Shown here: in pieces, positions 4,917 to 16,336 of the stretch
Layout of the letters: the number at the start of each line of letters is the position of its first letter
Position numbering within the stretch: position 1 is the stretch's first letter
Assembly: GCF_902713615.1 (NCBI RefSeq)
Contig: NC_052152.1
Location: 46,165,810 to 46,229,809 of the forward strand
Length of the DNA stretch: 64,000 nucleotides
Origin: Scyliorhinus canicula
Lineage: Eukaryota
Direction: 5' to 3'
Made by a program: the position numbers and the translations under genes
The notes under the pieces: model-generated
Databases searched by the model: none
What the model saw: the letters and a program-made list of their open reading frames with translations, nothing else
Told to the model about the DNA's origin: nothing

Positions 4917-6338
4917 ATGTGGCAGGGGGATGGGAACCAGATTAGGAAGTTAGAGGTCAGTAAAGAAGCAGCAACTAAAGACAGTAAGGTACGAGATAAT
5001 AAACCTCATGTGACTAAGGGGCAGAGTCGACAGGGAAGAGATGATCAACGCAAAGGGACAGGTGGTCTGTTGTGCATTTGTTTTAATGCGAGAAGTGTAG
5101 CAGGTAAGGCAGATGAACTTAGGGCTTGGATCAGTACCTGGGAATATAATGCTATTGGTATTACTGAGACTTGGTTGAGGGAAGGGCAGGACTGGCAACT
5201 GAATATCCCAGGGTATAGATGCTTCAGGAGGGATAGAGAGGGAGGTAAAAGGGGTGGAGGAGTTGCATTGCTCGTCAGAGATTATATCACAGCTGTGATT
5301 AAGGAGGGCACGATAGAGGATTCGAGCACTGAGGCAATATGGGTGGAGCTAAGAAATAGGAAGGGTGCAGTAACATTGTTGGGACTTTACTACAGGCCTC
5401 CCAAAAGTGAGCATGAAGTAGAGGTACAAATATGCAGACAGATTATAGAAAAATGTAGGAGCAATAGGGTGGTTGTGATGGGAGATTTTAACTTCCCCAT
5501 CATTGAATGGGATTTGTGTAGTGTTGGAGGCGTAGATGGAGCAGAGTTTGTAAGGAGCATCCAGGAGAGTTTTTTAGAGCAGTATGTAAATAGTCCAACT
5601 TGGGAAGGGGCCATACTGGACCTGGTATTGGGGAATGATCCCGGCCAGGTGGTTGATGTTTCAGTCGGTGATTACTTTGGGAATAGCGATCACAATTCCG
5701 TAAGTTTTAGAATACTCATGGACAAGGACAAGAGTGGTCCGAAAGGAAGAGTACTAAATTGGGGAAAGGCAGAGTATAACAAAATTCGGCAGGAGCTAGG
5801 GAATGTGGATTGGGAGCAGCTGTTTAAAGGTAAATCCACATTTGAAATGTGGGAGTCTTTTAAGGAAAGGTTGATTAGAGTGCAGGACAGACATGTTCCT
5901 GTGAAAATGAGAGATAGAAATGGCAAGATTAGGGAACCATGGATGACGGGTGAAATTGTGAGACTAGCTAAAATGAAAAAGGAAGCATATGTAAGATCGA
6001 GGCGACTCAAAACTGATGAAGCTTTGGAGGAATATCGGGAAAGTAGGACGGATCTCAAACGCGCAATAAAAAGGGCTAAAAGGGGTCATGAAATATCTTT
6101 GGCTAACAGGGTTAAGGAAAATCCCAAAGCCTTTTATTCGTATGTAAGGAGCAAGAGGGTAACTAGGGAAAGGATTGGCCCACTCAAAGACAAGAGAGGG
6201 AATTTATGCGTGGACTCAGAGGAAATGGGTGAGATTCTTAATGAGTACTTTGCATCGGTATTCACAAAGGAGAGGGACATGACGGATGTTGAGGCTAGGG
6301 ATGGATGTTTAAATACTCTAGGTCAAGTTGTCATATGG
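4917..6338 (+). CDS. CR1 ORF2 N-terminal half (APE endonuclease)
   Basis: FNARS, IGITETW, GGGVALL, LYYRPP, MGDFN, ILDLVL and SDH motifs; the frame is cut by the provirus LTR at 6339. Confidence 0.9.
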
Positions 6339-7333
6339 TGTTGCTCGTTTTACTGGAGTGTGATTAACACGCCTCTGTTTAAAGGCCGTGTGCTTAACAC
6401 TACTATAGCTCTGTATGTGTAATTATGCTCGGAGTCGCCAGGTGCCGTATTTAGACACCGTCACAAGTATATCAAGGTCAGGTTCAAAGTAATAAATCCG
6501 TACACCGATTAGTAAGTCCAAACGATTGGTGTTTATTACAACAAATATAATAAATACACATGCATACGCTAAAGAGACTAACTTACTTCTAATACTAAAC
6601 AACTAAATACTTATCTAGACAGGAACAGGCAAGGTCAGGGAACAAGGCCTTCGTCCCGTTCTTGGTCTGCAACTTTCTGATTCGTAAGGTTGTCAGGATC
6701 TAGCAAGGTCTGGATCACGTAGCGATCGTTGTATTGGCACTTACAGTTCGATGGCTGAGGCTCAACGGCTGGTGATGAAACTGGAGTCAGGATGCGATGT
6801 AACAAACAACAAACTTGGGTCGGAGTAAGCAAGCAGTCCTGAGCCGGAGCAAAACAGCAGAGCCGGAGCAACAACAGACCGAACCATGTGCGGGGTCTAC
6901 TCTTATAGGTCCTAGAAGTCCGTGCCCCCTTGGGGCGGTTCTTTTACCTGCCAGGTATCGATTGGGCCTCTCCCAATCGATATCTTCCAAACCCCCCAAT
7001 CTGAGGGTCGTTCCTCGATGGGTGGGCGGTCCCTACGGCTCTTTGTGTTGGTTGCTGTGGCGCCATTCTGTCTGGGCGTCTACGGAAAAGTATCCATTGA
7101 TACTTAAATGTTTCTATTGTGCGGGGTCTGGATCTGGATCACCTCATTACTATGCAGATCTGTTTCCATTTGCACCTTTGGCTGAAACTCTGCACCTGGC
7201 CAAAAACTGGTTTCTGTACGTGCAGAATGCAAATTAGTCTTCTGCAAGCTGCATGCCCTCACTAAGACTGTTTTTCCCTGCAGCCTTAGCAGTTCTCCAT
7301 TTTGTAGCCCAGTGTCCATCTTAGATGGCTACA
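6339..7333 (-). repeat. 3' LTR of provirus (995 bp)
   Basis: Direct repeat of 15337-16332 with about 14 differences by manual comparison. TG/CA ends; minus-strand AATAAA at 6532-6537. Confidence 0.97.
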
Positions 7334-7343
7334 TTCCCTCCTT
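7334..7343 (-). promoter_or_regulatory. Polypurine tract
   Basis: Minus-strand AAGGAGGGAA directly abuts the TGTAGCC start of the 3' LTR. Confidence 0.8.
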
Positions 7344-7698: not shown

Positions 7699-8046
7699 TT
7701 ATTCATCAAGGGGTTGGGGGGATTGGTGAAAACCGAAAATAGGGGATTGAACTCCGTAAATGGTTGAGGGGCAGGAACGGGAGGCTCTCCTTTTCCATTT
7801 CCTCAACCTGAGGGTCTGTACTTTTACGCAGAGAATTGCAATCACCAACAGTGATTCAATCACGTACGACATTGAGTACCATGTCATGAATTTTGTGCAG
7901 CAGGTCTGAACTTCGCTGATCAGTGCTGAGCACGGGGGAGTTGGTGTGAGGGAAACATTAACGGCGGGGGTTGTGGGGGAAACGTGACTTGCTTCCACAT
8001 ATACAAATACAACAACGTTTAAAACTAATAGGTAGGCTTCCATCAT
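7699..8046 (-). CDS. Small predicted type I membrane protein (115 aa) at the env position of the provirus
   Basis: AAGACC-ATG Kozak context; hydrophobic signal peptide ending VEA; NVS sequon; P/T-rich and Cys-containing ectodomain; TM YVIESLLVIAILCV; polybasic RLRKWKRR. Confidence 0.7.
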   Translation of the reverse strand: MMEAYLLVLNVVVFVYVEASHVSPTTPAVNVSLTPTPPCSALISEVQTCCTKFMTWYSMSYVIESLLVIAILCVKVQTLRLRKWKRRASRSCPSTIYGVQSPIFGFHQSPQPLDE

Positions 8047-8166
8047 GGTCTTCTCTTCGTTCTCTTTGTCCTCTTCCTTCTGTATGGCCGATCCTTGCCG
8101 TGAATCCTCTTTCGACCTTCGAAAGCTATGGGATCAAGCACAGTATCTGTCAATACTGGTATTGAC

Positions 8167-8348
8167 TGGGGCTGGTTTAGCTCACTCAGCTAAATCGCTG
8201 GCTTTTATAGCAGATCAAGCAGGCCAGCAGCACGGTTCAATTCCCGTACCAGCCTCCCCGGACAGGCGCCGGAATGTGGCGACTAGGGGCTTTTCACAGT
8301 AACTTCATTGAAGCCTACTCGTGACAATAAGCGATTTTCATTTCATTT
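8167..8348 (+). mobile_element. tRNA-derived SINE inserted in the provirus
   Basis: A-box-like TAGCTCACTCAG, B-box GGTTCAATTCC and a TTTCA-repeat tail. TCAATAC is duplicated at 8150-8156 and 8349-8355. Confidence 0.85.
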
Positions 8349-9078
8349 TCAATACACAGTTTAATATCCGTACTTGTTAGTGTATCTGTCCTCTCATTCC
8401 AATTGACCCTTAAATGACTGGCCAAGTCACACCCTGTGACTCCCCTCATTTTTTTTTTCAAAAGCGAATTTAGGAGCAGAAATACACCTAACAACTCTCC
8501 TCCTGCGAGCCGTCTCGCAGGCCTTGCCAATTTACCATCCGAATGTTCCTGGATGTAAATAGCATGTGGGATGGCGGCCTAAGGGCTACCTAACGAAAAA
8601 TGAAACAAAGTTTTGAAACAAAAAGGTCGAATGGGTTGCGTATGGGCTGCTACGGGTAAGATTTGGATGGGATCCCCGGGTAAGGCGTGCTGTGCCATAC
8701 CCGAGCTTGGCTGACCAAAGTGGGTTCTCAGACAGGGCGGGTCCTCAGTGCCGTTTCTCCACTGCCTGAGTAACCTGGAATGAACGGGCAAGAATGTGTT
8801 AACCGTGAGATTGCAGCCTCTATTCACCGAATAGAGGGGCACCTGAAAAACAAGGGAGGAGCCAAGATGCTTCTTGTGAAAAGTTGAGCTGTGCTCCAGA
8901 CATTTTAGCCATAATGTGAGCTGGTCACAATCTTTTCAGCTGAAAAGATCTGCAATCAAACCCTTAATATATCAACAAGCAAACAAAAATAAACTAACAA
9001 ACAAAACATACGTGCAGGTTCCATCAGAAAGGATATCGCTTCCCTCAAGCGGTTCCTATTTTACATCATCTGGACACC

Positions 9079-12000
9079 TCACTTTTCCTCTGCCTCTGTG
9101 AACAGGGTCACAAAGGGGTTGCCGTATCGGGAGTCAGACACCGTGTCGTCCTGCTCTCCCGGATCCCACACCCTTGTGTGGATCAGGCATGCAATCTTGG
9201 AATTATGTGACCGGGGGTCACTTTCATCGTTACGGACAAGTCTGTATGAATTGTCCCTGTGCCAAAGTGTGGGGTCTAAACTTGAAGGTGTATTGTCGGG
9301 GTCGTCGGGGTCGGGTGGTGGGTCTGGGTTTTTAACATAGGTGACTTCCATGGGGTCACTGGAGTCGGGGTCGTAGTCGCTACAGTGTGAGCTGTAGGGT
9401 GGAGTGCTGTGGCTGTCCTCAAAGTCAGTGTCAGTATCGCTGTCTCTGCTGTGGCAGCTTGTGGGCGTTTCGGGGCGTGGTCTGTTGTGGTCAGTGGGCA
9501 GAGTCGTGGGCGAGTCCGATGATGAACTGGTCTGTGAGGGGATGGTGGAAACGTGTCTCTAGTGGGCGGGGCGAGATGTTCTGCTGCGTCTAGCAGGACA
9601 TGGTGTGCGTGGTTAGACTGTGTTCCATATGCCTTCAGTTGGTTAATATGGAACCACGCAGTCTTTCCATTGGGGTATTTTATCCTGTAAACTGAGGGGC
9701 TAATTTTGTCCGAAATTGAATAAGGGCCGGAAAATTTTGGTGCCAAAAAACTGCTGGGGTTATACACAGATAGCATTACCTGTTGCCCAACCTGAAATTC
9801 TGTGGGGTGTACGTTCTTATTAAAGCAGGCTGTGCTTTGTTTGCGTCGTTTTCCCAGTTGAACTGCGGCTGCGATCTGTGCAGACCTCACAGTTTCAACT
9901 AGGTCTTTAACAGCTTTCTCATGCGTGAGGGCCGTCACTTCGGGGCTAGTCATGTCCAGTCCTAAAAGGAATTCTGTACCTTTCATAGGGCGTCCGGTCA
10001 TGAGTGTGTGTGGGGTGAATCCTGTGGATGTGGAAACCGTGTTGCGGATAAACATTAGTGCAAATGGGAGTACTGAATCCCATGTTGAATTGTTTTCCTG
10101 AACCATTTTCCTAAGGGTCGATTTTAGGGTCCGATTCATGCGCTCTACAATCCCGCTTGACTGTGGGTGATACGCAATGGGAAAATTTTGTTTAATGCCG
10201 AATATGGTCAGGACGTTCCTCATGACACGTCCTGTGAAGTGAGATCCCTGGTCCGAATCTATACTTCTGGGTAAACCCCATCTCGTGAAGTTGTGGTGGG
10301 TCAGGATCTTTGCAGCTGTCTTAGCTGTATTCGTTCGTGAGGGGAATGCCTCTACCCATTTGGTAAAGGTATCAATTACCACCAGCACGTATTTATAGCC
10401 ATTCCTACAAGGGGGCAATGGTCCTATAAAGTCGATCTGGAGGTTTGTCCAGGGGCCATTAACTGGTCGAGTATGCCGAAGCTGTGCCTTTTTGGAATAC
10501 CTCTCCGGGTTATTCTGGGCGCAAATAAGGCAATTCTCAATGTAATGGGTAACATCGGTCCTTAAGTTAGGCCACCAACAGAGTTGCCTGAGGTGCCTCG
10601 TGGTCGGGTCGATCCCTTGGTGTCCATGTCCGTCATGGAACAAGGCAATCATTTGATTTCTGTCCTGCTGCGGGACCACATAAAGCTGGTCCTTGATGAT
10701 CACACCCTCATGTGTGGTCAAAGCGTGTCGGAACTTATCATACTGGGGCACAAAAGTCCCTTTAAAAATCTCCCTGAGATCTTCATCTTGCTTCTGTGCC
10801 TCGGCTAAATCCCTAATGTCTGTCTGTGAGACTTGAACTGCACTCACAGGGGCGCTAGCTGGTGCGCTAGCTGGGGGTGTCCAAAAGTGTCCTCGCCTGG
10901 AACCTGCTTTAGCCAGTGCGTCGGCTTTTACATTTCCAGGGGGGGATGACCTATGGTGACTTCGAACTTTTATAGTTCCGAAGGTCCTATCCTTCGCTTT
11001 GTCTAGGATGTGGCGGAGTAAAGGGGCTGATGGAAGGGGTTTCCCGTCTGCGGAGACAAAACCTCGTGTCCTCCACAGGGGTAGAAAATCCGTCAAACTG
11101 TTGCAAACATATAGACTGTCCGAATATATGTCTGCCGGGCTGGGGAAAGAATCGGGGTGGTCCACTATGTAAGCTATGGCCGCGAGCTCTGCTGCCTACG
11201 CGCCTAAGTGACCTGGCAATTTTAAAGCTATTTCTTCGAGTGCGCGACCCTGCGTGTCCTCGACATAGATGCCGCATCCAGTGATACGCTCACCATCTAA
11301 AACTGTGGATGAACCGTCCACGTATATCTTCAGTGGGCCACACGTGTCTGTGTGTTGGGGGCTTTGTCTTGGGTTCCCTATCTTCCTGGGGGGTGTCTTC
11401 GCTATGAAGGGTCCTGTGTTGTGTAGGGGTGCTACAATTTCCCATTCATGGGGCTGTCCTGGATATTGGAGGTTGTCGGCTAAATATGTGTGTGTCCGGG
11501 TCCGTTTAACCGTAATGTCCCGTCCTTGTAAAAGTAGTGTCCACCTAGCTGCCCTAATCTGGCTAACTGAACCGTCCTTCAGTCGACCGTCTAGGAGTAA
11601 CTGTGTGGGGGTGTGCTCGGTCAAAATGGTGATGGGGTTGAGTCCGGTAATGTAGGAAAAGTATTGAACTGCCCAGAAAACTGCTAAGAGGTGCCTCTCG
11701 CAGGCTGAGAATCCTTGTTCTACTGGGTCTAAAAATCGGGAGGCATAAGCCACGGGTCGTAGCTGCTCGTGCCGTTCCTGAAGTAACACGGCCGAGAGGG
11801 TCAGATCTGTGCTCGCTACCTCTATTGCATAGGGGGAGAATTGGTCTGGGACTTGTAGCGCGGGTGCTGCGCTAAGGGCTCTCTTTAACTCTTCCACAGC
11901 CTCTGTATGCTGCGGAAGCCATTCCCATGGGGCTCCTTTCTTAAGGAGGTCGGTATGGTTCCGACAGTACCCAACCAGTCCTAAGAACGACCGGAGGGCT

Positions 12001-13280
12001 GAAACATTCTGGGGAAGGGGCAATTTGACAATCGAATCAATCCTTTTGAATTCGATCTCGCGTTTGCCGTGCGTGATGACTGTACCCAAATACATCACTT
12101 TGTTTTCCAATATCTGGGCCTTTCTGGGGTTAACTTTACATCCAATCAAGGTTAAAAGTTCCAGGAGCTCGGGAAGAAGCGTAATGTGCTCTGCCTTTGT
12201 GTCTGTCTGCAGTAATAGGTCGTCCACATACTGTACCAGACATTCGGGACGGGAAAATTTTTCTAAACCATTCGCCAGCTGTCGGTGGAAAATGGAGGGT
12301 GAATTGTGGAATCCTTGTGGGAGGCATGTCCACGTATACTGCTGTGCTTTGAATGTGAAGGCAAATTTGTACTGGCACGCCTTTGCCAATGGGATTGACC
12401 AGAAGCCATTGCTAATGTCCAATACCGTGAAATATTTGGAGTGGAGTCCCTGTTTGAGCATGGTCTCGGGACTTGTTGCTACCGTGGGGGCTACTGCTGG
12501 GGTTACTTTATTGAGCTCCCGATAATCAATGGTCAGACGCCATGATCCATCGGGCTTTCTCACTGGCCAAATAGGGGCATTATTGGTCGAGGCTACTGTC
12601 CTAAGTACACCTTGCTCCAATAAGCTACCTATTACTTTCTCCATTTCTCCCTCTGCTTCTAGGGGAAATCTGTATTGTTTCTGTGGTCAGGGGTCTGGTC
12701 CGGTAACGTGAACTTGTCCAGTCATTCTGCCGCAGTCGTGCCGGTGACTGGCAAATGCTGTCCTGTGTTTGTTTAAAACTGCTCTCACTTGTCTGTCCGT
12801 GTTTAGTGTAGTCAGGTCAAAAGAATATTCGCCTACTGCGCTAATCCGATTTGCGTACTCTCCTACTGTGAGAGTAGCGGGTGCTCTGTCTGACCTTGCC
12901 ATTCGCCAGACACACTGGTTCACTGGGTCGAACGACAGGCTATGGGCATTCATAAAGTCTATACCCAATATGTGTTCTGCTGTACGGGGAAGATTTACTA
13001 AAACGACGGGGTGTTTGGTAGAGATGTTCCCTAGCTGGATTGCTACGGGTCCTGTAATGTGTCCCTGCTGCGAGTGACCTGTAAAACCGCTAAGTGTGAT
13101 GGTGGAGGTGGTCGGCCACGTGTCTGCCTGTGCCGTGGTGGTGGAATTAATTGTGGTGTGGGACCCTCCTGTGTCCCAAAGTAACTCTATGGGCTTCCCT
13201 CTAACCTTAGCTGTGACTACCGGTCTCCCGGATTGATCCCAAAGAGTGTCACAGACCCAAGTGGGGGAGCCCGAACACCG
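9079..13280 (-). pseudogene. pol: Provirus Pol: protease, RT, tether (degenerate RNase H), RNase H, integrase
   Basis: PR LLWDTGGS; RT LDISNGFW, LPQGF, QYVDD; tether IEVAST...PVAYAS...ERHLLAV...ILTEH; RNase H IYVDGS...AELAA...YSDS...GNVKADALA; IN HDGHGH/CLIC, IDFIG, DSDQG, VERMN, SGPY. In-frame stops at 12687 and 11196, a probable deletion near 11953, and a probable frameshift near 9540. Confidence 0.92.
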
Positions 13281-15026
13281 TCAGTCCGTTCAGTCCACAT
13301 TGGTCTGTCCTGACTGTATCCCTATACTATGGATCGGCTTTGCTCTATTTCTATTCAGAGTGCCTGTCTGCTGGCCTCTCTGTGATCTTTGGGGTGCATT
13401 GCATTCCTTTGCAAAATGTCCTAATTGGCCACAGTTGTAATATTCGAGCGACTTCTGTGGAGGGCTGTTCTTCCCTTCATTTACCCATGCAGGGCTTTGG
13501 TGTGCTCTCACTGCCTGAATGTCCGCTGCAGCCTGAGCTTCCTCTGGGGACTTTACTTTGCCTTTGCCCTGAACTGATTGCTCCCAAGCGCGGGACAATC
13601 TTTTCAGGACCCATTTCTCATTGTGGGCCTCTTCTGAGGGGTCATAACTATTGCAAGCACTCTGTCCTGCATCTATGGCATGGGAAATTATGGTGCGCAT
13701 CCATTTAACCATGTTATCACGGCTCAAATGCGCTCTATTTAAATCGCCGAAAACTGCGTTAAAATGGATCCACAGCCTTCCTGCAAATGCTGTGGGATGC
13801 TCTGTTTTCTTCTGTCTGCACTTGTTTAGTCCCTCAACTGGGTCTCCTCGGTTATACCCTATGGCATCTAAAATGGAGGTGTGCATTTCCTCTAGTGTGC
13901 CTCCTCCAACGTTCTGTGGGTCGGGGAGGGCTGCTACAACAGACTGGTCTAAGCTCAGAACCGTGAGCTTAACCTGCTCTCTCTCGTCCAGGCCGTACAT
14001 GGTAGCCTGCTGTTTCACTTTCGCGAAAAATTGGTGGGGGTCTGCGGTGGGGAGAAACGGAGTGATTTTCTCACACGCGTCCCTGAGTTGGGTTACAGTT
14101 AAGGAGGTGGTGTAGGTGATATCGGGTGCGCCTTCTGTGGTCGCTTTCCTTTGGGTGGTGACTGGATTCATAGGTACGGTAGCGATTTGATCTGTGGGGG
14201 GTTGGGGTGCTTTTCTTTTCTGCTGCGCTGCTGGCGCACATGTTCCTTGAACATAGCGTTGCGCTGTCTCACTTAATTCCTGCCAGTCTGCGGCATTCTC
14301 CTCATCTAGCTGTGTGCCAAAAGTACTTTGGAACCCATTCTGCACTGAAAGCAGAGATTGCAGCTCCGCAATCTGCTTCCTACATTTGGCATGATCCACT
14401 GTACTTTGTCTTTGTTCTGTGGTGGCAGCATGGAGTGCTCTTAAAGCTGCCTTTAGGTCAGAGCATTGCCTCTGCAATGCCTCTACCTGCTTTTCTGATT
14501 CTTCTCTTATCAGGACGGCACGTTGCACGTCCTGATAGGCTTTTTCATACTGGGTCTGGGAACTGCTCAGATGGGCTAGACATGACTGATGTGCCCTCTT
14601 GGCATCATCCACCTCGCTACCCTTCTCTGCCAGCTTCCCTCTAAGTTCCATGTTTTCCTTCTCAATGTCCCTGACATCGACTTTGCTCATCCTATTTTGT
14701 TCTTCTAACTCTGCTCGGAGCGTCTGAACGACCTCCTCAGTGCCTCGCAACTGTGCCAAACAGGACACGATTGCCATCGGCTTGCGTGATTTACTAAGGT
14801 TTTTCTTATGAATTTGAGAGAGGTTCTCCCACCAAGTATGTCCTATACTTCCGGGACCTGTCTCCTCATTCATACAGAACTCTTTCCAAAGGGGCCATCC
14901 CTTTCCTTGCAGATACTTGCGGAGTTCCAGCTCCCACACGGGACACTGACCTACTCGGCTACTGCTGGTCGCTGCGACCACAAACCGTTCTGGGTTCATG
15001 AGGCGTTCCATTGCCTGCATGGCCAT
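13281..15026 (-). CDS. gag: Provirus Gag (~581 aa; coiled-coil N-terminal half, capsid/MHR-like region, degenerate zinc knuckle)
   Basis: 578-aa ORF; CRQKKTEHPTAFAGRL is MHR-like and YYNCGQLGHFAKEC is a CCHC knuckle with first Cys->Tyr. TGA at 13290 (probably a mutated CGA) and TGA at 13281. Confidence 0.88.
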
Positions 15027-15313: not shown

Positions 15314-15331
15314 GTCCCGGCGGAGTCGCCA
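15314..15331 (-). promoter_or_regulatory. Primer-binding site, tRNA-Arg(TCT)
   Basis: TGGCGACTCCGCCGGGAC is complementary to the 3' end (GTCCCGGCGGAGTCG-CCA) of vertebrate tRNA-Arg-TCT as recalled. It lies 5 nt from the LTR end. Confidence 0.85.
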
Positions 15332-15336
15332 CTAAA

Positions 15337-16332
15337 TGTTGCTAGTTTTACTGGAGTGTGATTAACACGCCTCCGTTTAAAGGCCGTGTGCTTAACACTA
15401 CTATAGCTCTGTATGTGTAATTATGCTCGGAGTCGCCAGGTGCCGTATTTAGACACCGTCACAAGTATATCAAGGTCAGGTTCAAAGTAATAAATCCGTA
15501 CACCGATTAGTGAGTCCAAACGATTGGTGTTTATTATAACAAATATAATAAATACACATGCATACGCTAAAGAGACTAACTTACTTCTAATACTAAACAA
15601 CTAAATACTTATCTAGACAGGAACAGGCAAGGTCAGGGAACAAGGCCTTCGTCCCGTTCTTGGTCTGCAACTTTCTGATTCGTAAGGTTGTCAGGATCTA
15701 GCAAGGTCTGGATCACGTAGCGATCGTTGTATTGGCACTTACAGTTCGATGGCTGAGGCTCAACGGCTGGTGATGAAACTGGAGTCAGGATGCGATGTAA
15801 CAAACAACAAATTTGGGTCGGAGTAAGCAAGCAATCCTGAGCCGGAGCAAAGCAACAGAGCCGGAGCAACAACAGACCGAACCATGTGCGGGGTCTACTC
15901 TTATAGGTCCTAGAAGTCCGTGCCCCCTTGGGGCGGTTCTTTTACCTGCCAGGTATCGATTGGGCCTCTCCCAATCGATATCTTCCAAACCCTCCAATCT
16001 GAGGGTCGTTCCTCGATGGGTGGGGCGGTCCCTAAGGCTCTTTGTGTTGGTTGCTGTGGCGCCATTCTGTCTGGGCGTCTACGGAAAAGTATCCATTGAT
16101 ACTTAAATGTTTCTATTGTGCGGGGTCTGGATCTGGATCACCTCATTACTATGCAGATCTGTTTCCATTTGCACCTTTGGCTGAAACTCTGCACCTGGCC
16201 AAAAACTGGTTTCTGTACGTGCAGAATGCAAATTAGTCTTCTGCAAGCTGCTTGTCCTCACTAAGACTGTTTTTCCCTGCAGCCCTAGCAGTTCTCCATT
16301 TTGTAGCCCAGTGTCCATCTTAGATGGCTACA
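15337..16332 (-). repeat. 5' LTR of provirus (996 bp)
   Basis: Adjacent to the PBS. Minus-strand TATAAGA at 15899-15905, inverted CCAAT pair at 15955-15979, AATAAA at 15530-15535. Confidence 0.97.
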
Positions 16333-16336
16333 ATGG

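Follow-up and report, generated by a model that had tools for sequence, protein, structure and literature searches.

Endogenous retroviruses (ERVs) without env are usually taken as purely intracellular retrotransposons, and ERV screens that are based on env miss such elements. According to PMC4643047, env under constraint is a sign of infectious spread, whereas loss of env is predicted where spread is strictly intracellular. The published precedent for an element that lacks env and relies on a small protein is sORF2 of the insect MDG1 retrotransposons, and for the MDG1 elements of Drosophila transfer by cell contact is reported as shown; the sORF2 screen of the same report required myristoylation and covered arthropods only (PMC11952523). 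The FAST proteins are described as being without a cleavable signal peptide and the FAST protein p14 as unglycosylated (PMC3979892), and for pistolviruses a proposal exists of FAST-like domains that follow a signal sequence (PMC12945298). Among the retroviruses, the snakehead retrovirus (SnRV) and an elephant-shark relative carry env according to PMC12193657 and PMC4422223, SnRV-like elements are given as the main ERVs of the coelacanth (PMC4977317), and a single Gag zinc finger and readthrough are listed as SnRV traits (PMC1224870, PMC13517186).

Our analysis argues that in a very large retroviral family of the catshark Scyliorhinus canicula env is replaced by an undescribed, selected gene for a predicted small membrane protein. 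In the literature searched there is no report of such a gene in a vertebrate ERV, and the element as such may be catalogued in Repbase or Dfam. In the window, that is the whole stretch of 64,000 nt that was analysed, an earlier note had pointed to an intact 115-aa ORF between pol and the polypurine tract (PPT). The ORF is indeed present and runs on the minus strand from 8046 to 7699, the plus strand at 7699..8046 being closed. It is flanked by the end of pol (9079) and by the PPT and 3′ LTR (7333) and thereby occupies the env slot of a 10-kb provirus with two LTRs and the following features:

15337..16332, minus strand: 5′ LTR of 996 nt, TG...CA, with AATAAA at LTR position 798
15314..15331, minus strand: primer binding site (PBS) for tRNA-Arg(TCT), the complement matching the tRNA 3′ end
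13290..15026, minus strand: gag, 578 aa, with a coiled-coil-like region and one CCHC knuckle
9079..13280, minus strand: pol (PR-RT-tether-RNase H-IN, then an S/T/D-rich tail), which other copies read in frame with gag past UGA-CGG
8430..8800, minus strand: conserved non-coding block separating pol from the small ORF
8150..8348, plus strand: SINE fragment with 7-nt duplication, private to the window copy (joint 8149-8349)
7699..8046, minus strand: small ORF, 115 aa, predicted type I membrane glycoprotein (translation, alignments, selection tests)
7334..7343, minus strand: polypurine tract, from the sequence
6339..7333, minus strand: 3′ LTR, by sequence comparison
about 15425-15445 and 6425-6445, minus strand: second PBS-like motif (TGGCGACTC) inside each LTR

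The provirus apparently interrupts ORF2 of a LINE which we take to be CR1-like (endonuclease part at 4917-6338, continuation from 16333, plus strand). It is flanked by a 4-nt target duplication, ATGG, at 16333-16336 and 6335-6338. The LTRs are 98.6% identical (K2P 1.3%), which would place the insertion at about 3 My at a mammalian rate or at about 30 My at a shark rate, the latter figure using the tenfold lower substitution rate assumed in PMC4422223. The second PBS-like motif lies ∼100 nt before the LTR 3′ terminus in the window and in other copies. The complement of the PBS proper together with a T-arm motif pattern occurs at 11 places of the genome, and at one of the six places fetched ARAGORN calls a tRNA-Arg(tct) gene. 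The pol gene of the window copy is broken by in-frame stops and a frameshift, and many other copies have pol frames open over ∼1,400 codons. Ten of the copies fetched include the end of gag, and in 9 of them gag terminates at UGA-CGG in frame with pol; in the window this stop is found at 13281-13292 (minus strand), and the loci L121-L127, L131 and L132 have it likewise. UGA-CGG is listed as a readthrough context for alphaviruses and a coltivirus (PMC13517186). Pol continues after the integrase with an S/T/D-rich extension of ∼160 aa (9079-9558, minus strand), which ends in NPFxTLF in all subfamilies examined. Gag has neither a Met-Gly start for myristoylation nor a late motif (PT/SAP, PPxY or YPxL), and both are also absent in five of five other copies.

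A first look at the genome gave 5,569 candidates with the 3′ region (40 scored) and 5,338 with the small protein, 143 of the 150 scored being without stop in a sample biased to the best matches; neither figure is a copy number. We then examined 112 loci of the family, 87 of which (74 distinct places) held both the end of pol and the core of the ORF. The spacing between the two is 790-1266 nt, which is too short for env, so none of the 74 places has room for one, and a longer frame in the env slot that might represent an intermediate was found in none of them. Other copies with a full env, which would speak against a small protein in place of env, were thus not met with in these places. The region between pol and the LTR of the window likewise contains no env-sized or F-like frame and no match to TLV_coat or another env family. 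Concerning the 1.7 kb of this region on which the earlier note had relied, the lack of an env-sized frame holds, but 199 nt are made up by the SINE fragment (192 nt plus the 7-nt duplication), which occurs in none of 52 other places. The same genome also harbors a separate ERV family with a gamma-type env (L101-L120), in which many env frames are open over 450-570 aa and the integrase is only 27-42% like that of the family described here.

For the protein itself, 43 loci yielded 29 uninterrupted frames (3 A, 13 B and 13 C), whereas 14 were dropped as broken or atypical. The following parts are discerned, preceded by the putative splice signal:

8125..8150, minus strand: putative branch point with splice acceptor; the exon would begin at 8125, 79 nt ahead of the ATG
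7990..8046, minus strand: predicted signal peptide, residues 1-19 (hydropathy, conservation; Ala19 invariant in alignment A2)
7951..7959, minus strand: N-glycosylation sequon (NVS/NDS), in 28 of 29 intact frames
7813..7902, minus strand: aromatic juxtamembrane helix (WCxxFxxWYSxSY) together with the TM segment, which contains Glu64; the most constrained part by dN/dS and within one helix of the AlphaFold model
7777..7809, minus strand: polybasic patch RLRKWKRR, then a tail with Y-x-x-x-S-P-x-F

Both the cleavage of the signal peptide and the topology are predicted on the basis of hydropathy and conservation. The good Kozak context reported before applies to the second Met (A at -3, G at +4). 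The N-terminal hydrophobic stretch ends in V-x-A and reaches a hydropathy peak of 2.8 over 11 residues, in agreement with a cleaved signal peptide; in all lineages it comprises 19-22 residues with a conserved small residue at -1. The predicted mature ectodomain of ∼30-40 aa carries the sequon, NVS at residue 30 in the window, and what had been noticed as a P/T-rich stretch is an S/T/P-rich stalk (50-58% S/T/P, 52% in the window's copy). A second hydrophobic stretch covers residues ∼58-78 and is followed by RLRKWKRR and a 25-residue tail. The basic patch is conserved in alignment A2, with 6-7 K/R per 14 residues in all seven frames listed, the tail motif YxxxSPxF is found in 26 of 29 intact frames and the TM Glu in 29 of 29, part of the most distant lineage having Ala there. 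As noted earlier, the ectodomain has no furin site, fusion peptide or heptad repeat, and it has no CX6CC motif either. Two claims need correction. Of the three ectodomain cysteines only C50 is family-wide. At position 49 almost every other copy has W, so that 27 of the 29 intact frames read WC, and C39 does not occur beyond the window's lineage. The TM segment does end in Cys in all 29 intact frames, but the residue is absent in six of six copies picked by pol and hence not invariant. K75 of the window copy is I in nearly all other copies. AlphaFold with a 9-row alignment predicts two helices, 2-20 and 42-91, the rest being disordered; the mean pLDDT is 64. At the C-terminus (7699-7715) many lineages end in P-L-E/D-M/V/A, presumably resembling a PDZ-binding end, and an 11-nt length variant turns the last residue into E in the sub-lineage of the window copy.

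Outside the catsharks no homolog of the small ORF was detected in the protein and metagenome-contig searches made. A search of 1.84 billion representatives gave five matches, four of them catshark gene models, and a profile search of longer proteins gave nine, all catshark models; nothing among them was env-like. At 63-202 aa the protein search found none, the relatives being chimeric models of at least 204 aa, and the match to the repeat protein P0038 (E 4e-8) was rejected as compositional. No Pfam family is above cut-off; TMEM156 is the lone match below it (8 of 9 members, best E 0.0017), and a genome search with the TMEM156 family led to copies of the element in eight of eight fetched loci, an outcome that speaks neither for nor against the capture of a host gene. 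With the AlphaFold model of mean pLDDT 64 Foldseek gave no match in the viral library at E<=0.001, and the ESM Atlas no match at 0.9, with a recognition score below the gene-like mark. Neither in sequence nor in fold was a match to any fusogen obtained in these searches. The metagenome contigs contained 59 RT loci, all at 29-38% identity, and no relative of the small ORF, and the viral contigs contained no relative of the RT.

These searches bear on the possibility that the protein is a shrunken Env, in which the signal peptide of env was brought next to its membrane-proximal region, TM and tail by an old internal deletion, and which was kept for Gag trafficking or release and has no fusion activity. 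The exact env position and the layout of expression and protein (acceptor, signal peptide, sequon, aromatic membrane-proximal stretch, TM, tail) would suit this origin, as does the env of SnRV and its elephant-shark relative. Nevertheless, we consider it unlikely: a profile of the small protein found nothing in the frames of 20 gamma-type env loci of the genome (best E 1.9; the comparison covered gamma-type Env), nothing env-like turned up among the 1.84 billion representatives or the longer proteins, the length of the stalk is steady across lineages, and the 74 places hold no longer-frame intermediate. As this explanation concerns the origin, it can be combined with a function in place of Env.

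The small ORF is a selected gene and not debris. Queries with gene models exposed diverged subfamilies in the S. canicula genome with the ORF in the same slot, and the ORF is kept in at least five diverged lineages of the protein tree and in two catshark species at 38-66% identity. Between subfamilies dN/dS is 0.32, about 0.30-0.31 and 0.20, and bootstrapping pN/pS gave upper bounds of 0.63, 0.64 and 0.42, so that the intervals exclude 1. Shifted frames gave 0.86-2.44; the codon-aligned antisense frame gave the same signal but contains stops. Third codon positions differ most (0.42-0.50 vs 0.14-0.23 at second positions), and the sole indel inside the ORF that is common to many copies measures 3 nt. 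Along the protein, dN/dS between subfamilies is lowest at residues 48-64 (0.06-0.16), amounts to 0.09-0.22 at residues 65-78 and is highest in the signal peptide (0.32-0.79). Since similarity to the protein had guided the choice of the B and C copies, we added two tests with less bias. When copies were picked by DNA, the frame was open across signal peptide, TM and basic patch in 25 of 29 (the start Met missing in one), and pN/pS was 0.17 for variants found in at least three copies (4 N : 8 S, small numbers) vs 0.55 for private variants. When they were picked by pol, the ORF was intact in five of six, with dN/dS of 0.05-0.34 over 10 pairs vs 0.05-0.13 for pol. A frame that is open by chance or decays neutrally could be expected to be short, of low complexity, without a Pfam family over cut-off and below the gene-like mark of the Atlas, as this one is. 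It is refuted by the selection tests, and we regard it as extremely improbable: four tests gave a dN/dS well below 1, and for two of these the copies had been chosen without recourse to the small protein, the pattern of codon positions and the 3-nt indel point the same way, and start, sequon and stop region are kept across lineages. The earlier note had named a dN/dS near 1 as evidence against its proposal; the values of 0.2-0.3, the conservation across lineages and the lack of env in all 74 places support the view that a conserved small membrane protein stands where env would be.

How the gene might be expressed is indicated by the sequence upstream of it. In the 29 frames a branch-point-like motif and YAG are found ∼50-90 nt 5′ of the ATG, followed by a purine-rich leader, which in the window copy is free of upstream ATGs. 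According to their annotation, 9 of 10 public gene models (8 loci, two species) use the acceptor, joining an upstream exon and entering 16-27 codons before the Met. RNA was taken from three raw runs, counting reads from any copy at >=90%. In two oligo-dT runs of one study the depth over the ORF by strand was 18.9 vs 0.7 and 41.3 vs 1.3, so the family RNA is sense to the small ORF, provided that the libraries follow the usual reverse-stranded design; RNA from both strands was present in a single-cell run. Among the 15 joints listed none connects the LTR leader to the acceptor, 66, 9 and 9 reads span the empty SINE site just upstream of the acceptor, which shows that unspliced RNA is present, and spliced retrocopies were found at 0 of 167 pattern-matched places, a narrow test. 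A spliced mRNA of the element itself is thus only inferred.

Two further observations concern this region. The acceptor of the small ORF also traps host exons in public gene models: models of S. torazame (P0055-P0060, P0037) end in the small ORF after KIAA1958, SUGCT, B3GAT1-like, CFAP36, HEPACAM2-like and a galectin-domain gene, so that from the gene models intronic copies of the element appear to add a TM and basic tail to host proteins. The non-coding block at 8430-8800 has a core that is 81-90% identical across three subfamilies, above the DNA conservation of the ORF, and shows invariant hairpin-forming stretches and a high sense-strand read depth. It is a candidate export, packaging or promoter element; an RNA structure is unsupported (no Rfam match, no covariation, z -0.53).

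Observed directly are the gene, its position, the absence of env, the selection, the conserved acceptor sequence and the sense-strand family RNA. The constraint matches the values of 0.15-0.27 given for env in PMC4643047. The lack of a myristoylation start and of late motifs in Gag would agree with capsids that do not take the normal budding route. A predicted secretory-pathway protein in the env slot, the env-like constraint and these Gag features would be explained most simply, by a single reading, if the protein were a contact-dependent substitute for Env. Thus, we tentatively suggest that the predicted small surface glycoprotein replaces Env in cell-to-cell transfer, probably from soma to germline, a proposal which may well be right. 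A spliced, LTR-driven mRNA of the small ORF would be translated and the signal peptide cleaved, leaving a glycosylated stalk of ∼30-40 residues and the aromatic helix outside and one TM helix crossing the membrane. The basic patch and the Tyr-containing tail would lie in the cytosol and could serve surface delivery and the recruitment of Gag or actin, and local membrane contact or fusion would allow the non-budding capsids to cross into the touching cell.

Several findings are at odds with this suggestion. None of the 29 frames has the motif MGxxxS/T, and the predicted signal peptide is unlike FAST. The stalk resembles a mucin stalk more than a fusion peptide, the juxtamembrane WC helix has a low hydrophobic moment (0.22-0.33), and sequence and fold searches matched no fusogen. 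Basic patches after a TM helix are widespread among membrane proteins, so this feature is generic. The LTR-to-acceptor joint is missing among the 15 listed, with unspliced reads present and 0 of 167 spliced retrocopies. In addition, a very high copy number, as found here, is a mark of intracellular retrotransposition (PMC4643047).

The last point fits another reading, that of an accessory membrane protein acting in or on the producing cell, either as a channel like Vpu or M2, as an adaptor against a restriction factor or receptor, or as an anchor for capsid assembly, while the element spreads intracellularly. The TM Glu and the Tyr-containing tail suit binding of an intramembrane partner and sorting, the neighbours in a protein language model are small type I/III proteins such as M2, TMIE, DAP10 and US6 (all <0.9, leads only), and SnRV is described as encoding several accessory ORFs of 52-205 aa (PMC12193657). 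We nevertheless think this reading somewhat unlikely, as an element confined to germ cells would presumably gain little by immune modulation at the surface, part of the most distant lineage has Ala in place of the TM Glu, and constraint is strongest on the outer aromatic helix, where contact with another membrane would be made.

Returning to an Env substitute in cell-to-cell transfer, a bolder form of the proposal is conceivable, although we are rather doubtful about it: Env was discarded, and a micro-fusogen bearing a signal peptide, which arose independently of sORF2 and FAST, passes capsids from soma to germline and enabled the thousands of copies. If true, it would mean a first infectious route without Env in Retroviridae as well as a new class of minimal fusogens. 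More generally, an env-less vertebrate family keeps a gene for a predicted surface protein under env-like constraint. If the protein mediates intercellular transfer, the sORF2 route would extend to vertebrate retroviruses with a different protein design, and the equation of env loss with loss of infectivity would need a caveat. Even as an accessory protein it would represent an undescribed, selected retroviral gene family that is directly testable by its size and in a laboratory shark model.

In relation to the retroviruses, the RT, the single Gag zinc knuckle, the readthrough stop between gag and pol and the tRNA-Arg PBS point to the SnRV-like clade, tRNA-Arg being what we take to be the primer of SnRV. 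By eye the RT is closest to SnRV and unlike lokiretroviruses when compared with the RT alignment in the supplement of PMC7947760, the best named relatives are proteins of coelacanth and Xenopus (42-52%), and among solved structures the RTs of foamy virus and MLV rank above Ty3. A grouping of a catshark ERV with fish foamy-like elements is mentioned in PMC10699275. In Xenopus tropicalis, an SnRV-like pol model (P0003) runs on at residues ∼570-760 with a hydrophobic start, to which a weakly matching Ig-like domain (E 0.06) is attached, and this part may be an env of unusual type; a search of the S. canicula genome with this piece gave nothing. Lokiretroviruses were rejected since their RT motifs differ by eye (W/F-x-R-CPFG-x-x-NSP vs WTCLPQGFHNSP) and a frame like the paramyxovirus F of their Env is lacking, and the Odin retrotransposon was rejected on its RT motifs.

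In comparison with the small proteins, size, ectodomain length, the aromatic juxtamembrane helix and the basic patch may make the catshark protein akin to FAST and sORF2 in its working. It appears to resemble both in layout and not to be a member of either group because of the predicted signal peptide, the conserved N-glycan site and the missing myristoylation motif. With sORF2 of 412 and Stalker2 (MDG1 group) it shares the env-less LTR element, the small single-pass protein, an ectodomain of ∼30 residues and a basic patch after the TM, and some lepidopteran sORF2 genes lie downstream of pol, as the catshark ORF does (PMC11952523). However, the hosts of sORF2 are insect Metaviridae, whereas the catshark element is Retroviridae-like (SnRV clade) and found in a vertebrate; sORF2 uses N-myristoylation, the catshark protein a predicted signal peptide and a conserved N-glycan site with a predicted spliced subgenomic mRNA; and the transfer function is shown for sORF2 and proposed for the catshark protein, which is likened to sORF2 by its layout. 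The reovirus FAST proteins p10, p14 and p15 are similar in their 100-200 aa, single TM, predicted N-out orientation and membrane-proximal polybasic motif, in line with the 115 aa and the one internal hydrophobic helix of the catshark protein (topology predicted). They rely on myristate or a cystine-noose fusion peptide, whereas the catshark protein has an S/T/P stalk with one family-wide Cys, no amphipathic fusion peptide and no fold or sequence match.

Compared with whole elements, the SnRV-like ERVs (clade Huo, including the elephant-shark CmiERV lineage I) share the single Gag knuckle and the gag-pol readthrough, and SnRV also the tRNA-Arg PBS; by eye the RT motifs are closest to those of SnRV among the reference RTs compared. 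The readthrough stop differs (UAG-GGC in SnRV vs UGA-CGG), and SnRV and CmiERV lineage I carry a full env, whereas the catshark family is env-less with thousands of candidate copies. The dual RNase H recurs in lokiretroviruses and Odin; lokiretroviruses were not found in screened cartilaginous fish, and Odin is likewise without env, the available part of its description reporting no small membrane gene. The env-less superspreader ERVs (IAP-like) also combine the absence of env with a very high copy number and a Gag without myristoylation start. These ERVs lose the constraint on the env region, whereas the catshark family keeps a selected membrane-protein gene there.
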